A stretch of DNA of 37,829 nt from a virus, in IMG/VR virus record IMGVR_UViG_3300045988_168478, positions 1 to 37,829 of that record, one strand, 5' to 3'. Below are positions 1,027 through 37,829 of this stretch, piece after piece. Below the pieces are notes generated by a model. That model ran no database searches. It worked only from the letters and a program-made list of their open reading frames with translations, and had not been told where the DNA came from. The position numbers and the translations under genes were made by a program. Positions within the stretch are counted from its first letter, which is position 1, and every line of letters starts with the position of its first letter.

Positions 1027-1230
1027 GGCAGCGTCGAACCCCGCCGCGCCCTACGCTGTTAATCGCCGGAACAGTCGCTTTCAAGAGGAAATATGACGGG
1101 GAGGGGAGTTCGTGACCACTTAAAGCAACATAAAAAAGCCGCTGGCGACTGTTGCAAGGCGAATCGTATGAAGCGGAACCACAGGCAGACAGTCGCCATC
1201 GGCGACAGAAAAGGCGACAAGGCGACGGAA

Positions 1231-2964
1231 TCAGACGCGCCCGTCGACAAACGAGGTGGAGAGCACCTTCAGACGGGTGTAGTACTTAGTCCAGATGCGC
1301 TTGTCGACGCAGTCGCCGAAGTGGGTCGCTTCTTCGGGCAGGACGGACTGGCGGCGCTCCGAGCTCTTGTCTTTGGCAAACCTGCCGTGGGAGTCTTCGA
1401 TGACTCTCGTGTTCTGCATGGAGATGAGCGTGTGGCGACAGCGGGTGGCGTTGACCCTCACCTTGGGGAAGCGTGGGTCGGTCTCGGCAAGGATGTAGGT
1501 CCAGAGCAGGAACTTCTCGTGCTGTGGCGGTTCGATGCCCGGATGCACAAGCTGCGTCACCTCCCAGCCAAACTTCTGCAGACGCTCGACAAACAATTCA
1601 TTGTACGTCTTCTTGGAGTTGGCTCGTCTGGCATCGCCGTAGCGGTCGCGGTAGAGGGTGAGACGCTTGCAGGCATGGTGGGAATAGTAGGCTATGAACT
1701 TGTCGGCAAGCACGTTCACCTCGGTGTCGCTCTCGTCGTCGCGGCGCACGAAAAACTCATTGATGACATTGTCTACAGGAACATCCGTAGGCTGTTTCAC
1801 TACAAAATCATAACAGCGCTCCTGACCCACAGAGAGAAAAGAGGCTGCACTACCCCAGTCCACAGATATCTCCAGGGGCTGGGTAGGGTCGCAGTCGAGG
1901 TCTATGCGCGAATCATGCACCGAGCGCAGCGACTCCCAGTCGTAGTCCGCATTCTCGGCGAAGTCGCGCACGTAGGAGTCGTTGTAGGCATTGTAATAGA
2001 GGTGGCGGTCTTCGAGCTTGTAGTAGCAATGGTCTACCTTGTCGAGAACGTAATTGAGGATTTCCACCATGAACGACAGCTTGTCCATCACCTTATACTG
2101 GTTGACGATGTACGACATGCCGAGGTTCTCGATATTGTCGAACACGGAGCCGAGGATGAAGAGCGTGGAATCCCTGGACACGAAGGGCGTGAGCTCGCGG
2201 CGCATTCTCGAAGCCTCGTTCCAGAGGTCGCGGAAGAGGGCCTTGTCCTTATTGATATACGCGTCGATGAGTTGCATCTGTACCGACACCATGCGGTTCC
2301 ACCGCTGGAACAGGGGGATGCCGCGCTCACGCTCGTAATACTCCGCCGGCTCCAGGAGCCACTTCTGCTGTGCCGTGTAGGGCATGGAGGAGAGGAAGGC
2401 GTTGCCATGATGCTTCACTATGGGATGGGCGGAGCGACGGCCGAAGATGGTCTCGTTGCCTCGGTTGGTAGGTGCCACCTCCTGGTCAAACTTCTCCTTG
2501 TTGATGGTCAGCGCCTCGTCGGTGATGTTGAAGTCGGCGTTGGGTCCGCGGCTGTTGCCCTCCTGGGTGAGGATATACAGGATGTGGCCGTTGGAGAAAG
2601 AGATGACGTGGTCAAACTGCATGATATGCTCATAGGGGCGGTACCATCCGTCGGGCGGACGGCGGCACACCACGTAGTCGCCCGTATGCGTCTGGTAGTC
2701 GTAGGGCTTGTAGCCGAGCATATCGAGCATCTTGAACGTGGAGGGCAGCGTCTTGGTGAGTGCCTGACCGATGGTAGCCTGCGCTATGGTGGTGACGCCG
2801 CGCGGCATGATGCGCACGTTCTCGTCCACTTCGGCACCTACGATGAACGACTTTCCCGTGCCTCGCGAGAACACGGCATACTTGTTTTTCGCCGGAAGCA
2901 GCATGTAGGCATACTGCGCCCGGTTCACTCTGATGTTTTCCTGCCAATAGTCCTTTTCCATCAT
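1231..2964 (-). CDS. terL: Terminase large subunit
   Basis: 577-aa ORF with a Walker A-like motif AVFSRGTGKSF near the N-terminus. Its size and position are typical, and the upstream gene's stop overlaps its start (ATGA). The 637-aa plus-strand ORF at 1093..3006 is its antisense partner and is rejected. Confidence 0.8.
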   Translation of the reverse strand: MMEKDYWQENIRVNRAQYAYMLLPAKNKYAVFSRGTGKSFIVGAEVDENVRIMPRGVTTIAQATIGQALTKTLPSTFKMLDMLGYKPYDYQTHTGDYVVCRRPPDGWYRPYEHIMQFDHVISFSNGHILYILTQEGNSRGPNADFNITDEALTINKEKFDQEVAPTNRGNETIFGRRSAHPIVKHHGNAFLSSMPYTAQQKWLLEPAEYYERERGIPLFQRWNRMVSVQMQLIDAYINKDKALFRDLWNEASRMRRELTPFVSRDSTLFILGSVFDNIENLGMSYIVNQYKVMDKLSFMVEILNYVLDKVDHCYYKLEDRHLYYNAYNDSYVRDFAENADYDWESLRSVHDSRIDLDCDPTQPLEISVDWGSAASFLSVGQERCYDFVVKQPTDVPVDNVINEFFVRRDDESDTEVNVLADKFIAYYSHHACKRLTLYRDRYGDARRANSKKTYNELFVERLQKFGWEVTQLVHPGIEPPQHEKFLLWTYILAETDPRFPKVRVNATRCRHTLISMQNTRVIEDSHGRFAKDKSSERRQSVLPEEATHFGDCVDKRIWTKYYTRLKVLSTSFVDGRV

Positions 2965-3542
2965 GTGTCCATTATCTCCTCTGCTTCTGCCTCGCCGATG
3001 GGCTGATAGAGGCTGTCGATTATTTCCTTCTTGTCGCGGTCTGAATAGTTGCGCGCGTCGCCGAGCGATACGTTCTGCGACTGGCCGTTCTGGTTTATCT
3101 GGATGAAGAACTGGTTTGCCTGCATGCGCTGAGGGTCTTCAACGCCGGCAGGACGGTCGCCGATGATGTCGCGCAGCACCTTCTTCGCCCTGTTCCACTC
3201 CTGCAGGTCGCCGCTCAGCCTGCACTCGCGGATGAGTTCCAGCTGGTCTTTTATCATCCAAGCCTGCCAGAAGTCCCAGTCGAAGGTATGGCGCGACTTG
3301 TAGAGCTGGCGTGCGAGGGCTATGTCGCGGCGCACGGTGGAGGAAGAGACGTCGAACTTGGCCTGCATCATCCGGATGACATGCGTATCATCGGGATAGT
3401 CATCGAGCAGGCGTGCCGCCGAGAGCACGCGTTTGAACTGTGTGCGGCAGCGCTCCGGCAACGGATATTTGTCGGGATCCAGGATGTGCGCCTCGATCTC
3501 GTCGTGGGAGAGTTTTTCGATAGACTTGTAGTTTCTTGCCAT
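2961..3542 (-). CDS. Putative terminase small subunit or DNA-binding protein (193 aa; start taken at MARNYKS)
   Basis: Lies immediately upstream of terL with a 4-nt overlap. A helix-turn-helix-like segment (SSSTVRRDIALARQLYK) is present. The longer 234-aa version begins with an implausible hydrophobic N-terminus that overlaps the upstream gene. Confidence 0.4.
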   Translation of the reverse strand: MARNYKSIEKLSHDEIEAHILDPDKYPLPERCRTQFKRVLSAARLLDDYPDDTHVIRMMQAKFDVSSSTVRRDIALARQLYKSRHTFDWDFWQAWMIKDQLELIRECRLSGDLQEWNRAKKVLRDIIGDRPAGVEDPQRMQANQFFIQINQNGQSQNVSLGDARNYSDRDKKEIIDSLYQPIGEAEAEEIMDT

Positions 3543-14232: not shown

Positions 14233-14646
14233 ATGGCAAAGAAGAACGACGCGGAAAAGTCAAGATCCGTCTACATCAACAGACTTGACGACATAAGAGA
14301 AGCCCTTGGCATCAAGACGGCAGCCACTTTCTGCCAGGAGGCAGGTCTTGACAAGAATCTCCTGTCAAGCAAGCAGAAAGAACTGACCACCAAACACCTT
14401 GTGCCGATTTTGTTGAAGTTTCCCCAAGTAAACCCCTACTATATCATGTTGGGTGTCGGCAAACCCCTGCTTGAGGGATTCGGCAAAGACGACGGCATAG
14501 CTGCAAGGTATATCATCAACGAGCTTCAGAACGTGCAGATGGAGGTGAGGACTCTACTCACGGAGAACACGACATTGAAGTGCAAACTTGCAGAATTGGA
14601 AAAGAAGTCAAATAAGGCCGATAATGCTGACGGCCAACAAGATTAA
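14233..14646 (+). CDS. HTH (XRE-like) transcriptional repressor with a C-terminal coiled coil (137 aa); cI-like
   Basis: HTH segment IREALGIKTAATFCQEAGLDKNLLS and a coiled-coil C-terminus. Divergent from the early operon and co-oriented with the integrase. Confidence 0.55.
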   Translation: MAKKNDAEKSRSVYINRLDDIREALGIKTAATFCQEAGLDKNLLSSKQKELTTKHLVPILLKFPQVNPYYIMLGVGKPLLEGFGKDDGIAARYIINELQNVQMEVRTLLTENTTLKCKLAELEKKSNKADNADGQQD

Positions 14647-33079: not shown

Positions 33080-33092
33080 TATTACTCTGCAA
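33080..33092 (-). promoter_or_regulatory. -7 promoter element (cctaTTTTTGcag) for the late operon
   Basis: Plus-strand ctgcaaaaatagg, about 20 nt upstream of the ATG at 33062. Confidence 0.4.
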
Positions 33093-33125
33093 AAATAGGC
33101 AACAAACAATAAATACCGTGGGACA

Positions 33126-33160
33126 TAAAAAAGACGTGCTACTTTCACAAGCGGCACGCC
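33126..33160 (-). terminator. Terminator-like hairpin (cgtgc...gcacg) followed by T6 on the minus strand, ending the 34592-33204 operon
   Basis: 6-bp stem with one mismatch and a 14-nt loop; A6 on the plus strand at 33126-33131. Confidence 0.35.
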
Positions 33161-33203: not shown

Positions 33204-33500
33204 TCAATATGATAGGCTGTCTTTATCCTTGCTGAACAGACGCCAGCAAAGACTATTTCCGACAAGCATGGTATGGTAACCAAGAACTGTTAACACCTTA
33301 TTTATTTCATTGACGTCAACAGGAACGATGCGCCATAAAAAACGACGGATATCATCCGTGGTGAGCAGAAGAAGCTGCTCTTTATCTCCTTCTGGCGAAA
33401 AGCGCTGTTCTATCAATTGCTGAAGCATTGACGGTTCTTTCTTTTTCTCCGTCTTCTTCTCATTATTATCGCCATAGTTTACGAATCCTATTTTAGCCAT
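33204..33500 (-). CDS. Hypothetical protein (98 aa; start at MAKIGF)
   Basis: ORF trimmed to the ATG at 33500. Confidence 0.45.
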   Translation of the reverse strand: MAKIGFVNYGDNNEKKTEKKKEPSMLQQLIEQRFSPEGDKEQLLLLTTDDIRRFLWRIVPVDVNEINKVLTVLGYHTMLVGNSLCWRLFSKDKDSLSY

Positions 33501-33835
33501 GACTCCGCCCCCTTTCCGAATTTTTCCACGAGGAGCTTGCGCGCCTCGCAGTATTGTGACTTCGGTCCGTACTGGTTTATCCAGTCGAGGAAGGTGCACA
33601 CCTCCTGCAGGACATCGAGGAAGGTGTAGAAATCCTTATATTCCTCCAGCTCGCGGTCGAAGAGCGAGCCGTCTTCAGTACGATGCAGCAGCGTGCGGCG
33701 CATGTCGTCGCAACGTTCTATAAGGTTGACCACGTCGCCGTGGGCTATCTCCTTTTCAAGACGCTCCACGATATCCTTACGTGCATACTGGTATTCCGCT
33801 GTTGTCGCGGTGCGGTTGTTCGGTTCGTTGTTCAT
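33488..33835 (-). CDS. Hypothetical protein (115 aa)
   Basis: Complete ORF; ATGA overlap with the upstream gene. Confidence 0.5.
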   Translation of the reverse strand: MNNEPNNRTATTAEYQYARKDIVERLEKEIAHGDVVNLIERCDDMRRTLLHRTEDGSLFDRELEEYKDFYTFLDVLQEVCTFLDWINQYGPKSQYCEARKLLVEKFGKGAESWLK

Positions 33836-34254
33836 AGTCTGCCTCCTTTCTTTGCTTCAAGTTTCTCTGCTATGTCTGCCGACATTCCGGCGGAGAGCAT
33901 TCCGGCGATGTAGCTGCGCTCGGAGGAACCGGTGTTGTTCTCCGTAGCCTCGCGGATGAGTTCCGCCTTGCGGTCGGCATAAGCGCGCTGGCGCTCAAGG
34001 TCGAGGGTTGCTCTGACGTGATGGTGGCGCAGGCGCTCGGCATTGAGGGACTGAGTAAGCTTCTCCGTGTTCGACTGCTTTTGCTTGCGCCAGTCCTTGC
34101 GGTAACGCTCGAATGCGTCGTTCAATGCTTCTTCCACTCGGCGGTATTCTTCCTTCGCCTTCTGTTCTATCGCGATGTGCATCAGGTCTTCCTGGTGCTG
34201 ACGGTCGTTGATCGGTACGATTACGGATGCCACGAATTGCTTGTATTCCATCAT
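33832..34254 (-). CDS. Hypothetical coiled-coil protein (140 aa)
   Basis: Complete ORF with charged heptad-like repeats. Confidence 0.5.
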   Translation of the reverse strand: MMEYKQFVASVIVPINDRQHQEDLMHIAIEQKAKEEYRRVEEALNDAFERYRKDWRKQKQSNTEKLTQSLNAERLRHHHVRATLDLERQRAYADRKAELIREATENNTGSSERSYIAGMLSAGMSADIAEKLEAKKGGRL

Positions 34255-34592
34255 ACTTCACCTCCTTTCTCTGCTGTTTCGTTCTTCATTTCGGTTTTGT
34301 TGAGCCTGCGCACCATCCATGCGGCGCATGCTGCTGAGAGGAGCGACGCCACGGGAGCGGCTTCCACTGCCGCCACGCCCACGAAGAAGCATACGGTGAT
34401 GAGGTTGACGCGCAGCACGGTGCGGCGTGTCACCGTGAAGTCGGCTATGCGCGAATAGAACTCCGACTTGCGGTCGAGCCAGCGGCTGATGGCCGCCAGA
34501 TGGTTGATTACTGTGCTCTTTACGTCGGCGAAAGCCAGTTCCGCCCCCGTGCGCTGAGCTTCCTGCGCCTGGATTGCTGATGTCTGTTGCAT
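34251..34592 (-). CDS. Hypothetical membrane protein (113 aa; one TM helix); first gene of a four-gene operon
   Basis: Complete ORF preceded by a long structured leader. Confidence 0.5.
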   Translation of the reverse strand: MQQTSAIQAQEAQRTGAELAFADVKSTVINHLAAISRWLDRKSEFYSRIADFTVTRRTVLRVNLITVCFFVGVAAVEAAPVASLLSAACAAWMVRRLNKTEMKNETAEKGGEV

Positions 34593-34596
34593 ATTG

Positions 34597-34822
34597 CATC
34601 GTTCTTTTTAGCATTCCCGGATCCGCCGGGCCGGAGATACAGAAAGGCGGCTGCACATCCCGCTGCTAAAAAGAACGATGACTCTACCCGAAGGGCAAAT
34701 TCAAATTCTACGGAATGGCAACCGCCATGTATGTAAGATTATGGGCATAAAAAAAGCCCACGCAATCAGTGCTGAGCAATAACCGCTGCTCTCCGGGATA
34801 GTCTACTATCGTTCTTTTTAGC
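34597..34822 (-). promoter_or_regulatory. Structured 5' leader / operator region containing three copies of the 15-mer GCTAAAAAGAACGAT (34808-34822 and 34597-34613 in one orientation, 34665-34680 inverted)
   Basis: Direct reading of the sequence. The middle copy can pair with either outer copy. The start-proximal copy lies immediately before the ATG at 34592. Confidence 0.45.
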
Positions 34823-34825
34823 GCT

Positions 34826-34834
34826 GCAAAGATA
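34826..34834 (-). promoter_or_regulatory. -7 promoter element (TAtcTTTGc) driving the 34592 operon through a leader of about 230 nt
   Basis: Plus-strand gcaaagata. Confidence 0.4.
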
Positions 34835-34905
34835 CGCATAAGAATCGGACGGGGCAAGGGAAATGGGGAAAAAGTTGCGGTTTTGGTGTAAAATTTTGAC
34901 GGGAA

Positions 34906-34937
34906 GGGCGGATGGAGGGGCGGAGACATTATATATA
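34906..34937. repeat. Conserved GC box gggcggatggaggggcggagacatt followed by TATATATA (copy 1 of 3), directly downstream (minus strand) of a terminator
   Basis: Identical 25-mers at 34906, 35790 and 36906. Confidence 0.8.
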
Positions 34938-34954
34938 ATATATATTGACAAAGA

Positions 34955-34982
34955 AAAGCCCCGGAGGATTTCCGGGGCTGGT
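34955..34982 (-). terminator. Rho-independent terminator (gccccggaggatttccggggc followed by a T-run on the minus strand) after the gene at 34987..35481
   Basis: 8-bp GC stem followed by TTTTCTTT on the minus strand. Confidence 0.7.
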
Positions 34983-34986
34983 GTGG

Positions 34987-35481
34987 CTATTTGTTTGTTT
35001 CAACCGCTTCTTTGTCTACCGTTATGCGCAATCCGCCGATGCTATATCTGTTAACGACCGACACGGACAGCCATAGTATGAAAGCAAGCACAAACGCTCC
35101 CAATACGCTTTGGGCTATTCCATGGAGATATTGTTTCCATGTTGGTGTCAGTACCGACTCGAGCACATGCTTCATGTGTGCATCCTGATTTCTGATGTAG
35201 TCGTTTTCAATCTGATTTGCCGCAGCCCTCAGGACCTCGTTGGAGAACATTCCCAGTATAGACTGTGCGTGGTGTTTGTATTCTTCAATCCTCGCCGGTG
35301 TGCAGCAGCTGTTGTGGAAAGTGTTCATCTCTTCCTCGTTAGGCTCACGGCCGTTTTCTTTCTTGAACGTGTCCAGATACGACACCTTGTCGAATTTGTA
35401 TATAGAATAGGCTATATGTCCGCAGATGTCGTTCTTGTCCTTTACGAGCTGTCTGAATATATAATTGTATTTCCTTGCCAT
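34987..35481 (-). CDS. Hypothetical protein with a C-terminal transmembrane helix (164 aa; start at MARKYNY); its C-terminus ...AVETNK is shared with the gene at 36569
   Basis: Its ATG overlaps the upstream gene's stop (TAATG). A TM segment lies near the C-terminus. Its last codons and terminator lie within a repeat shared with 36535-36585. Confidence 0.5.
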   Translation of the reverse strand: MARKYNYIFRQLVKDKNDICGHIAYSIYKFDKVSYLDTFKKENGREPNEEEMNTFHNSCCTPARIEEYKHHAQSILGMFSNEVLRAAANQIENDYIRNQDAHMKHVLESVLTPTWKQYLHGIAQSVLGAFVLAFILWLSVSVVNRYSIGGLRITVDKEAVETNK

Positions 35482-35687
35482 TATCTGCTGAGGGTTTTTT
35501 CCCATGCATGTCCGTATGCCTTGCGCATCTCGTCCATAGTGATGCGGCCATGGTATTCGCCACCCTTGAACTTCACGGAAAGGTCAATGTCGCTGCTCTT
35601 TCTCGAATGGCAGGCAGTGTTTTTCTTCCCGTTGGCGATTGTCCGCTCACAGGCTTTCCTTATTGTTTCTTGAGTAATTGTACACAT
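35481..35687 (-). CDS. Small hypothetical protein (68 aa) translationally coupled to the gene at 34987..35481
   Basis: ATG at 35687 lies about 30 nt downstream of a -7 promoter element. The longer 110-aa version begins inside a repeat and is not conserved in the other copy of that repeat. Confidence 0.35.
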   Translation of the reverse strand: MCTITQETIRKACERTIANGKKNTACHSRKSSDIDLSVKFKGGEYHGRITMDEMRKAYGHAWEKTLSR

Positions 35688-35710: not shown

Positions 35711-35814
35711 TTCCGCTGCAAATATAGGAACATTTTTCCGTTCCCGCAATTTTCCCATCAAATTTAGTGTTAAAATTTGATACATGAAAGGGCGGATGGA
35801 GGGGCGGAGACATT
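35711..35814. repeat. About 104-bp direct repeat (copy 1) containing a -7 promoter element (35716-35724), the perfect inverted-repeat operator TCAAATTTagtgttaAAATTTGA (35758-35780) and the GC box (35790-35814); copy 2 lies at 36827-36930
   Basis: About 95% identity between the two copies over about 104 bp. Confidence 0.8.
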
Positions 35815-35854
35815 GTTATATATAGGGAGAGGCAGACCGATTTATTGACAGGAA

Positions 35855-35892
35855 AAGCCCCGGAGCAAGCGCAAGACTCATCCCCGGGGCTT
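35855..35892 (-). terminator. Rho-independent terminator (agccccgg...ccggggct followed by TTTTCC) after the HTH gene at 35948..36205
   Basis: 8-bp GC stem with a 20-nt loop and a U-run. Confidence 0.55.
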
Positions 35893-35947: not shown

Positions 35948-36205
35948 CTAAATCTCTTCTGCAGCGCGGCGTATGCGCTCGCTCAAGTCTATCAGTGCGC
36001 CACGCATCAGCTCTGCCTCCTCGGCGTTGAAGCCGCCAGTGCCGCCGTTGCCATCGATACCGTCCATCTTGTGGTAGAACCACGACGACGACTTGTGGAA
36101 GTAGGTATTGGCAAAATCTCTCCACGATATTGCCATCATAACGTCCTTCACCCTGCTCTTCATGTCGGTTATCACGCCCGACTTCTCCAATACTACCGTC
36201 TCCAT
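35948..36205 (-). CDS. Small HTH_17 / excisionase-like DNA-binding protein (85 aa); paralogue of the gene at 36991..37380
   Basis: YFHKSSSWFYHKMDG...FNAEEAELMRGALIDLSERI aligns with YFGKSRSWLAHKLNG...FSDEELSTLKSALSDMSQKL. The G-K-S-R-S-W-x-x-x-K-x-x-G pattern resembles the AlpA/Xis HTH. Confidence 0.5.
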   Translation of the reverse strand: METVVLEKSGVITDMKSRVKDVMMAISWRDFANTYFHKSSSWFYHKMDGIDGNGGTGGFNAEEAELMRGALIDLSERIRRAAEEI

Positions 36206-36455: not shown

Positions 36456-36534
36456 AAGATACTATAAAAATTCGTAGTACACAAATAAATAATACGATTT
36501 TTTGTAGTATATATGAAATAAAAATACCTTAATA

Positions 36535-36563
36535 AAAAAGCCCCGGAGAATTTCCGGGGCTGG
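36535..36563 (-). terminator. Rho-independent terminator (gccccggagaatttccggggc followed by T6) after the gene at 36569..36817; near-identical to the 34955-34982 terminator
   Basis: 8-bp GC stem followed by TTTTTT. Confidence 0.7.
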
Positions 36564-36826: not shown

Positions 36827-36930
36827 TTTCCGCTGCAAATATAGGTACATTTTTCCGTTCCCGCAATTTTCCCATCAAATTTAGTGTTAAAATTTGACAT
36901 GAAAAGGGCGGATGGAGGGGCGGAGACATT
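36827..36930. repeat. About 104-bp direct repeat (copy 2): -7 promoter element 36836-36844, inverted-repeat operator 36875-36897, GC box 36906-36930
   Basis: See copy 1 at 35711-35814. Confidence 0.8.
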
Positions 36931-36947
36931 ATATATAGATAAAGAAA

Positions 36948-36970
36948 AGCCCCGGAACATCTCCGGGGCA
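36948..36970 (-). terminator. Rho-independent terminator (gccccggaacatctccggggc followed by a T-run) after the HTH gene at 36991..37380
   Basis: 8-bp GC stem followed by TTTTCTTT. Confidence 0.65.
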
Positions 36971-36990: not shown

Positions 36991-37380
36991 TTATAGAGAA
37001 ACGCTCATTGAGCCTAATTTCTGTGACATGTCGCTGAGGGCGGATTTCAGCGTGCTGAGCTCCTCGTCGGAGAACTGTGCCGCCTTGCCGTTCACTGTGT
37101 TGCCGTTCAGCTTGTGGGCGAGCCAGCTGCGCGACTTGCCGAAATACTTCTTTGCAATATACGCCATGGAGACCATCTTTGTTATTTCGCCCATCCTCTC
37201 TGCCATGGTCAGGTTCTCCACTTCCTTTGCCGTGGTCTTTACCAATGACTCCAGGGCTTCGGTGAATTCCTTGGGATTCTCGTTCTTCAGAGCTTCCATT
37301 TCGAGGGCGATGCCCTGCTTTTCCTCTTCAGTCTTCGCTGCCCTGTTCCTTGCTGCGAGTGCCTGTATTCTTTCTTTCAT
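36991..37380 (-). CDS. HTH_17 / excisionase-like DNA-binding protein with an N-terminal coiled coil (129 aa); paralogue of the gene at 35948..36205
   Basis: Shared C-terminal domain as described for the gene at 35948..36205. Confidence 0.5.
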   Translation of the reverse strand: MKERIQALAARNRAAKTEEEKQGIALEMEALKNENPKEFTEALESLVKTTAKEVENLTMAERMGEITKMVSMAYIAKKYFGKSRSWLAHKLNGNTVNGKAAQFSDEELSTLKSALSDMSQKLGSMSVSL

Positions 37381-37583: not shown

Positions 37584-37604
37584 AATCCTTTCTTTTTATC
37601 ACAC

Positions 37605-37613
37605 TGCAAAGAT
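37605..37613 (-). promoter_or_regulatory. -7 promoter element (TAtcTTTGc) for the tiny ORF / HTH unit. A 6-bp inverted repeat TCAACAaatgTTGA lies about 40 nt upstream at 37651-37664.
   Basis: Plus-strand gcaaagata. Confidence 0.35.
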
Positions 37614-37717
37614 AATAAACTTTTGTTGATTAAACAAGAAAAACAAGGATTATTTTCAACAAATGTTGAATTATGTATAAAGAAAAAGTCCGGAATTTCT
37701 ATGAAAGAAAGAAAAGG

Positions 37718-37829
37718 TTCATTTCTTATTGAGCTTCGCTATAAGCTCAAGACTACGGGCGTTAAGTTCCAACTTCTCCGCTGCCAACTTCTCCGCTGCC
37801 AACTTCTCCGCTGCCAACTTCTCCGCTGC
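37718..37829 (-). CDS. C-terminal 36 codons plus stop of the methyltransferase CDS, if the element is circular: ...(AAEKL)4 ELNARSLELIAKLNKK then stop
   Basis: Same frame and same repeat unit as at the left end. The TGA stop is at 37718-37720. Confidence 0.45.
37770..37829. repeat. 15-bp tandem repeat (caacttctccgctgc), 4 copies; identical to the repeat at 1-55
   Basis: Direct reading of the sequence. Confidence 0.9.

Follow-up and report, generated by a model that had tools for sequence, protein, structure and literature searches.

A widespread structured leader RNA of Prevotella/Bacteroidales phages with a predicted same-strand antisense segment

The window analyzed here, a 37,829-nucleotide (nt) stretch of viral DNA covering positions 1 to 37,829 of IMG/VR record IMGVR_UViG_3300045988_168478, is read as a temperate siphovirus from its integrase, tape measure, amidase and holin genes. 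On its minus strand, an untranslated leader of about 235 nt precedes a small four-gene cassette and contains three copies of a 15-mer, one of them inverted. As judged by comparison with its relatives, these three repeats are part of a previously undescribed and widespread structured leader RNA of Prevotella/Bacteroidales phages, whose most likely role is to switch the cassette off and on. We lean towards reading this leader as a multistable riboregulator organized around a same-strand antisense segment, designated B. The comparisons show that the predicted potential of B to pair, at the RNA level, with two further boxes, A and C, and with a partial copy, D, is maintained by selection, and that a conserved scaffold displays B. 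Unless another strand is indicated, the features of the window described below lie on its minus strand.

Concerted change of the repeated boxes

The 15-mer GCTAAAAAGAACGAT is present in exactly three exact copies in the window. Box A (34808-34822) stands at the predicted 5' end of the transcript and starts 5 nt past the -7 promoter box TATCTTTG (34827-34834). Box B is found on the plus strand at 34665-34679 and is therefore inverted on the minus-strand transcript, where it forms the core of the antisense segment CAUCGUUCUUUUUAGCA (34664..34680). Box C (UGCUAAAAAGAACGAUG, 34597..34613, with the 15-mer at 34598-34612) occupies an A-rich region at -21 to -5 of the start codon and leaves 4-5 nt between its end and the ATG at 34592. 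The B and C arms make up a perfect 17-nt inverted repeat (34597-34613 / 34664-34680) with a spacing of 50 nt, which encloses the hairpin CCCGGCGGATCCGGG (34616-34630), and the A and B arms a perfect 15-nt inverted repeat with a spacing of 128 nt. An earlier sequence-only reading of the window, made without database searches, had described the three copies, the position of A at the predicted transcript start, the local 17-bp stem between B and C with its enclosed hairpin and the proximity of C to the start codon, and all of these were recovered as exact features.

The remaining matches to the 15-mer in the window all have 3 mismatches, which corresponds to the chance level (1.22 expected). A box-like site with 3 mismatches, GCAAAGAAGAACGAC, is located at 14236-14250 on the plus strand, in codons 2-6 of an open reading frame (ORF) beside the integrase. 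It provides an 11-bp run with B including one G.U pair, a frequency expected by chance for the window, and the loci of the relatives contain no matching sites.

The same leader was retrieved from 5 IMG/VR contigs and 12 metagenome contigs, after 7 of 19 metagenome matches had been discarded as chance. A pattern built on the invariant stem matched 61 IMG/VR loci, 3 of which were chance matches and were discarded, and protein homologues down to 44% identity brought in further loci. Since the boxes change in concert, an exact search of IMG/VR for the 17-mer met none of the relatives and returned 34 single chance matches only. In the 18 close relatives, where 12 box types of 13-15 nt were distinguished, the reverse complement of B equals C exactly in 17 cases; A is identical to C in 9 leaders, and in 6 it shows a C-to-U difference that keeps a G.U pair with B. 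The wider family comprises 61 distinct leaders with 32 B alleles of unequal length (for example GCTAAAAAG and GGTTAAG) set in near-invariant surroundings. Changes in the antisense and in its targets are compensated, the 32 B alleles being accompanied by matching A and C boxes.

The best partner of B is its own C in 58 of these 61 leaders and its own A in 55, with mean energies of -22.9 and -21.9 kcal/mol for the self duplexes versus -11.0 and -10.2 kcal/mol for non-self combinations. The B:C duplex has a median length of 16 bp (944 Watson-Crick pairs, 11 G.U pairs and 1 mismatch) and the A:B duplex a median length of 15 bp (877 Watson-Crick pairs, 41 G.U pairs and 9 mismatches). The non-canonical cells include 52 G.U versus 2 A.C, and this asymmetry shows that the complementarity is selected on the sense RNA and not on DNA. 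The sequence-only reading had named 15-mers that vary within conserved flanks as a sign against itself; this is literally what was found, yet with the boxes varying in concert it is a signature of pairing and no refutation.

The leader and the first ~90 nt of gene 1 constitute the most conserved island of the locus, with a mean pairwise identity of 0.93-1.0 that dips exactly at A, D, B and C. Outside this island, the identity among close relatives is about 0.4 upstream and 0.55-0.85 in the downstream genes. The start of gene 1 (34500-34592) is 96-100% identical at all codon positions though later codons diverge, suggesting that the coding region is reached by the RNA element or else by a hot spot of recombination. 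In almost every member the layout is constant: a TAnnTTTG box is followed 5-6 nt later by A, the core lies about 90 nt downstream, C is found 34-35 nt past the core, and an ATG about 5 nt after C opens a gene of one family ('W[LFY][DN]xxSxFYSR'). The junction between C and the start codon is of the GATGCAATATG type across the leader family. Even with a gene 1 identity down to 44%, one relative retains the entire architecture in different sequences.

Recurrent tandem arrays were also observed, in which a complete leader of another allele stands before a truncated gene 1. In L096 (7819-8301), L124 (3081-3559) and L128 (140-1025), two or, in the last case, three complete leaders with different box alleles and their own promoters are spaced by about 404 nt, and the gene 1 that follows the upstream copies is truncated at about 40 codons. 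The boxes of neighboring copies are mixed in L128 (A and B of one allele, C of another), which may result from recombination or from mis-phasing by the assembler. Contig IMGVR_UViG_3300014109_000004 (41.6 kb) carries two leader-gene 1 modules about 14.5 kb apart (L107, 4881-4960, and L129, 2090-2169) that differ in allele and in gene 1 subfamily, and four related contigs sharing the IMG/VR dataset prefix 3300045988 display four different alleles.

No family match for the leader was obtained in the databases searched. A blastn search of 50,697 GenBank phage records with the region and with a leader of the second subfamily produced no match. In the genome collection, the first probe had no matches, and the second met only the edge of a Prevotella metagenome-assembled genome (MAG), a contig binned as Oscillibacter and chance matches. 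A close homologue of gene 1 is annotated in an uncultured Prevotella sp., and one relative lies within a Prevotella MAG. The comparison of 33800-35600 with Rfam using cmscan at E<=10 gave two chance matches to unrelated families and none to the C4 family; six diverse related loci gave nothing at the gathering score, and no curated model of the known riboswitch and cis-regulatory classes (Rfam 15) matches the leader. Limited literature searches found no description of it.

The scaffold of the leader and the domain around B

The leader was expected from the sequence-only reading to be structured, and it does fold at -89.6 kcal/mol (z = -4.4 versus shuffles). That reading had overlooked that B lies inside a conserved domain of about 82 nt (34646..34727), that a fourth, partial copy pairs with B and that a hairpin, H1, covers the 3' half of A. 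The B domain consists of a 17-bp stem named P-long (GGCGGUUGCCAUUCCGU / GCGGGAUGUGCAGCCGCC, 5' strand 34710-34726, 3' strand 34646-34663), a helix P2 that joins D, the partial copy (AGAAU, 34705-34709), to the GUUCU segment in the middle of B (34672-34676), a hairpin H4 (34683-34699) and the displayed half of B, namely an 8-nt bulge (UUUUAGCA, 34664-34671) that corresponds to its variable 3' half. Folded alone, the domain reaches -43.2 kcal/mol (z = -6.8, 66% of the ensemble); in the window it is the lowest-energy fold and contains neither A:B nor B:C. The same shape is adopted by 37 of 39 distinct domains when folded alone, with at least 17 different P2 helices and a bulge of 6-8 nt.

With a covariance model, 83 copies of the domain were identified in 79 sources; the window contains a single copy, which scores 97 bits. 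In the corresponding alignment, which was fitted to the model and hence leans towards structure, 90% of the cells pair and 13 pairs are changed on both sides (77 cells). These values are reached in 0 of 500 shuffles, and slid controls give 3-5 pairs. P-long hardly varies, and its changes are all wobble-compatible. RNAalifold applied to the close relatives chose B:C and could not judge the invariant long stem, a point that was settled using the wider family and the covariance model. P2 was placed out of register by MAFFT and was consequently judged by per-sequence folding and on the alignment to the covariance model. A search for tRNA-like genes gave nothing.

Several additional hairpins complete the scaffold. 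H1 (GAUAG-UAGA-CUAUC, 34797..34810) shares 3 nt with the 3' end of A. Nearly all leaders form, at this place, a stem of 5 bp and a loop of 4 nt from many different sequences (AU 9 / GC 7 and GC/GU/AU covariation), and the overlap with the 3' end of A is constant. The 5' half of A is left free, as is the 3' half of B, and since these two segments are mutually complementary they form a toehold arrangement. H2 (GAGCA-GCGGUUAU-UGCUC, 34774..34791) has a conserved loop on arms that read GAGCA/UGCUC, GGGCA/UGCUC or, in L095, GGACA/UGUCC. H3 (GUGGGC-UUUUUUUAU-GCCCAU, 34741..34761) exhibits GU/AU at its closing pair and GGGC/GCCC arms, replaced by GAGC/GCUC in L105 and GCGGGC/GUCCGC in L082. H5 (CCCGG-CGGAU-CCGGG, 34616..34630), the hairpin enclosed by B:C, is retained with other sequences in other subfamilies. 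The conserved CUGUAUCUCCG (34632..34642) is the partner of the 3' strand of P-long in an alternative hairpin, H-alt, once P-long opens. H-alt is predicted in most variants, where the changes are wobble-compatible or, in L071, compensated.

Two other elements of the leader had been pointed out in the sequence-only reading, and a regulatory role is supported for neither. The short hairpin followed by seven T, which would fit an attenuator, is a single structure: the T7 run is the loop of the conserved GTGGGC-TTTTTTTAT-GCCCAT at 34741-34761, i.e. of H3, whose arms covary, and no terminator-like site was scored between 34597 and 34826. The 13-codon mini-ORF does exist and is not conserved, with 13 versus 21 codons and non-conservative changes of L to E or K. 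A role as a leader peptide is not supported, its ATG being absent in the L087 and L082 subfamilies and its stop codon moving.

The energies of the competing folds were compared by constrained folding. In 7 of 7 leaders tested, the domain, A:B and B:C folds are within about 0-5 kcal/mol of each other. When P-long is opened, its 5' strand can form AUGGC-GGUU-GCCAU and its 3' strand can pair with the downstream CUGUAUCUCCG. The near-isoenergetic folds and the alternative partners of P-long thus describe an RNA built to switch. The comparison thus lends very strong support to the proposal that A:B and B:C are mutually exclusive and that B:C occludes the initiation region, through the concerted box change in the 61 leaders, the G.U bias and the energies.

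Candidate mechanism and competing explanations

Initiation of translation in Bacteroidota does not involve Shine-Dalgarno (SD) pairing and is tuned by the structure of the mRNA and by the upstream nucleotides (PMC6847099); B:C would therefore be expected to block the translation of gene 1. The proposed mechanism can be summarized as follows. The exposed halves of A and B would serve as toeholds. The B:C duplex (16-17 bp, about -23 kcal/mol) would bury the ribosome landing site of this SD-less mRNA, leaving gene 1 and likewise the coupled genes 2-4 untranslated, with polarity or duplex cleavage possibly contributing. With B paired to A, or locked in its own domain, C would be free and the cassette on. 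With less certainty, the B domain might be cut out of the leader or otherwise accumulate, as in P4 CI and P1 c4 RNA, and might then act on sibling or incoming transcripts; such action in trans would bring about delayed self-shut-off and allele-specific silencing, the box sequence being the address code. The mechanism suggests a route for switching genes where ribosomes ignore the SD sequence, namely the burying of an A-rich landing site.

Known phage systems are organized along similar lines. In phage P4, the CI RNA is processed from a leader transcript and pairs with seqA upstream and seqC downstream (PMC4825925, citing Ghisotti 1992, Sabbattini 1995 and Briani 2000). The likeness is that antisense and targets share one strand and one untranslated leader, with one box on each side and the controlled genes following directly. 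The two systems have no sequence or covariance-model similarity and differ in host, Bacteroidota here and Enterobacteria for P4. The P4 system leads to premature transcription termination of a replication operon, whereas the box here lies over an SD-less initiation region and belongs to a small cassette. The present leader also has a partial copy as a fourth box, a hairpin that covers A and, in addition, two hairpins that are invariant.

In P1, the c4 RNA finds complementary boxes on both of its sides, the downstream ones covering the icd ribosome-binding site. It is processed by RNase P, and compensated changes between P1 and P7 define heteroimmunity. According to PMC8198154, citing Citron and Schuster 1990, this antisense RNA has its gene upstream of the target within one operon (immI, c4-icd-ant), as B does, and is required for full repression of the downstream genes. 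It differs in belonging to the Rfam C4 family, in having two short boxes (a', b') versus one box of 14-17 nt, and in controlling an antirepressor. Features of the C4 type that are found here are a same-strand leader antisense with boxes on both sides in the window and in 55-58 of the 61 distinct leaders, a downstream box, C, that overlaps the initiation region of the first gene, and the compensated box alleles. The IsrK RNA of Gifsy-1, described by its authors as a structural homologue of the P4 SeqA RNA, is likewise leader-derived, acts on a longer transcript of the same promoter and alters the accessibility of the first initiation region (PMC4825925). IsrK differs in being an enterobacterial activator of translation that depends on an isoform reading through a terminator; the present leader has no evident terminator. 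By analogy, the latter is organized like P4 CI and P1 c4 while standing outside their family, its own features being the fourth copy, the H1 toehold, the SD-less initiation region and the Bacteroidota host.

Because of this P4 CI / P1 c4-like organization, the B domain may act between molecules as well as in cis. Hints of processing or of trans action are the autonomous stability of the domain, its AU-rich single-stranded flanks, the near-perfect complementarity kept in 32 versions, the extra leaders before truncated genes, the contig with two modules of different alleles and the four alleles found under one dataset prefix. We consider as a speculative extension, for which our confidence is low, that the leaders form an RNA-coded immunity or incompatibility system of gut Bacteroidales temperate phages. 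In that case, the B domain would be excised, would accumulate in lysogens or late in infection and would silence, in trans, any incoming cassette that bears its own 14-17-nt address; heteroimmunity groups would correspond to the 32 or more alleles, and the extra leaders before truncated genes would be acquired 'weapons' directed against competitors of other alleles. RNA immunity of the P4/P1 type would then be seen for the first time beyond Proteobacteria, on an unrelated scaffold. If B is intermolecular, RNA-based phage immunity, so far known from P4, P1/P7 and kin, would extend to the human gut virome and would provide a handle on phage-phage competition. The 32 poorly cross-pairing addresses on a fixed scaffold are also candidate orthogonal riboregulators for the engineering of Bacteroides and Prevotella.

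A number of observations weigh against a multistable riboregulator centered on B. The minimum-energy fold of the window contains neither A:B nor B:C, and the full B:C with P-long intact would be a pseudoknot. Nested two-strand folding gives a small gain in trans (median -3.0 kcal/mol with C and -6.9 kcal/mol with A), these energies being lower bounds since two-strand cofolding cannot represent pairing within a closed loop. The start of transcription, possible processing and a possible influence on translation are predictions made from the nucleotide sequence. Mismatched boxes occur on some contigs (L049, L066, L117 and copy 2 of L128), which may be assembly chimeras across the invariant scaffold. 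The boxes are not clearly faster-evolving than their flanks, and ordinary compensatory drift of a cis helix could yield the allele diversity. L056 and L057 have identical scaffolds and flanking genes that are only ~80% identical, so that the identity of the scaffold reflects constraint and not recency. The notion of box 'hypervariability' was tempered for the same reason, the pairs with the same scaffold and different boxes coming from phages with only ~80% identical flanks. Finally, extra targets of B were sought in 754 kb of related loci and only the next tandem copy was found; action in trans would therefore concern only other leader copies.

A purely cis-acting switch is the explanation that competes best, and we regard it as a genuine possibility of lesser probability than the riboregulator reading. 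The RNA would settle co-transcriptionally in an ON state (A:B or the B domain, with C free) or an OFF state (B:C), B would never be intermolecular, and the allele diversity would be ordinary compensatory drift. The choice between the two could be set by the speed of transcription, by temperature, by a ligand, by a protein of host or phage origin on the H2/H3 loops or by 5' processing that removes A. Such a switch accommodates the three isoenergetic folds and the alternative partners of both P-long strands, the invariant H2 and H3 loops, which resemble recognition surfaces, and a box variation close to the background rate seen in flanking genes. Covariation extends likewise to the remaining helices (H1, P2, H4), the loci offer no further targets, and trans binding is weak in nested folding. 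It accounts poorly, however, for 16-17 bp kept near-free of mismatches and wobbles in 32 versions, which is rare for a cis helix, and for complete extra leaders without obvious cis use before truncated genes. A bulge showing only the variable half of B, combined with A at a free 5' end, typifies intermolecular antisense, and no Rfam family, riboswitch classes included, provides a match.

It is improbable that the leader is a protein-dependent element, in which a phage regulator would bind the boxes as double-stranded RNA stems, possibly also as DNA, and block translation like Aca2/Aca1. The latter provide a precedent of regulators of the helix-turn-helix (HTH) type binding both promoter DNA and a stem of the 5' untranslated region (UTR), and the likeness extends to a phage 5' UTR with conserved stems over the initiation region and to a small early cassette that is translationally repressed (PMC13551039). 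Two DUF5053 proteins and other small genes are located just upstream of the leader, and the invariant scaffold could serve as a protein platform. Aca regulation nevertheless needs a co-encoded HTH protein and repeats shared with the promoter DNA, whereas the boxes here vary freely and no such protein was found in the cassette, genes 1-4 having no detectable nucleic-acid-binding domain. A protein binding 32 box sequences of varied length on a fixed scaffold would have to be shape- and not sequence-specific, and the upstream neighbors are wholly different between relatives in which the leader and gene 1 are constant.

More unlikely still is a unit resembling a type I toxin-antitoxin system, with a membrane-damaging gene 1 product that is silenced by the antisense segment of the leader and released, for example, in abortive infection or for lysis timing. 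In hok, long-range pairings between 5' and 3' boxes lock the toxin mRNA and activation follows from 3' trimming, Sok being transcribed from its own promoter on the opposite strand. The likeness to hok (tac / fbi boxes) is in the end boxes that lock or release the translation of a small membrane protein and in the several metastable folds. In favor of such a unit, gene 1 is small, its product is hydrophobic in a C-terminal segment and the leader has no other constant partner; the cassette, moreover, is autonomous and changes its position in the genome. In contrast to Sok, B lies in the leader of its own target, and no separate antitoxin promoter was seen for it. With 75-114 aa, gene 1 also exceeds typical type I toxins and heads a coupled operon of 3-4 genes, and no support came from PADLOC or Pfam. 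Sites acting as DNA, i.e. three repressor operators as the sequence-only reading had allowed or inverted repeats for inversion (Bacteroides-type inverton) or recombination, are scarcely credible. The repeats are exact in the window with one inverted, and Bacteroidales commonly have invertible promoters that lie between short inverted repeats, but operators and inversion sites are excluded by the unequal box lengths, even between close relatives, together with a G.U asymmetry that is meaningful only for sense RNA. In addition, the neighboring helices covary as RNA, the A-B interval does not include the promoter, all relatives examined share one orientation and no recombinase is adjacent, the sole integrase being about 19 kb away.

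The cassette, its transcription unit and neighboring features

Gene 1 (34251..34592) encodes 113 aa, within a family range of 75-114 aa, with a C-terminal membrane segment and the motif WLDxKSEFYSR, and follows the leader in every family member. The starts of genes 2-4 (33204..34254; 140, 115 and ~98 aa) overlap the preceding stops, which makes their translational coupling to gene 1 probable. No function was obtained for genes 1-4 from Pfam, PHROGs, PADLOC or NCBIfam.

The predicted promoter of the leader is of the Bacteroidota type (34827..34858), with a -33-like CTTG at 34855-34858 in addition to the -7 box mentioned above. TTGC and TAnnTTTG are invariant among relatives despite differing flanks. 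Sites of the form TAnnTTTGCNG were counted 6 times in the window, all on the minus strand, versus 1.3 expected by chance (739-749, 33087-33097, 34824-34834, 35716-35726, 36833-36843 and 37604-37614); the pattern is a predicted phage-specific extended promoter consensus that would include the first transcribed bases (CAGCG). A strong putative intrinsic terminator (AGCCCCGGAAATCCTCCGGGGCT followed by a T-run, 34957..34979), detected by the terminator scan and as a member of a repeat family, insulates this promoter from the upstream unit.

At the other end, the cassette is closed by a terminator-like hairpin (33127..33160, GGCGUGC...GCACGUC + U6), whose loop is too long for the terminator scan, and a new promoter, TATTTTTGCAG (33087-33097), precedes the holin; both were read directly from the sequence. 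With these two elements, the regulated unit is predicted to be limited to genes 1-4, a cassette that has a terminator of its own, and not to extend over the entire late operon. This restriction to four genes had been overlooked in the sequence-only reading. The same cassette is located directly 5' of the tape-measure gene in other phages, and its occurrence at different genome positions therefore characterizes it as an autonomous, movable module. In L075, L078 and L138, genes 1-3 are directly upstream of a tape-measure protein of 900-1500 aa, a slot usually occupied by tail assembly chaperones; in the window, the holin unit follows the cassette instead.

Repeated intergenic cassettes are present at 34904-34979, 35788-35867, 36525-36561, 36904-36969 and 37672-37700. 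Each is built from a near-identical terminator hairpin (AGCCCCGGA..TCCGGGGCT and a T-run), a G+C-rich box (GGAAGGGCGGATGGAGGGGCGGAGACAT, plus strand) and a TAnnTTTGCAG promoter, and several small genes thus stand in separate, similarly built transcription units. The G+C-rich box could be the site of a shared regulator. A promoter region of 70 nt is duplicated with 99% identity (35711-35780 and 36828-36897) before two different small genes. The two DUF5053 proteins upstream of the leader (35948-36205 and 36991-37380; E 1e-28 and 3e-29) are paralogous and belong to separate small units. The 15-nt unit CCAACTTCTCCGCTG is repeated head-to-tail in four or more copies at 37769-37828, up to the end of the window, where a minus-strand ORF contains AAEKL repeats. 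At the opposite end, two long ORFs of 637 aa (1093-3006, plus strand) and 577 aa (1231-2964, minus strand) overlap nearly fully on opposite strands, with a G+C content of 0.57.

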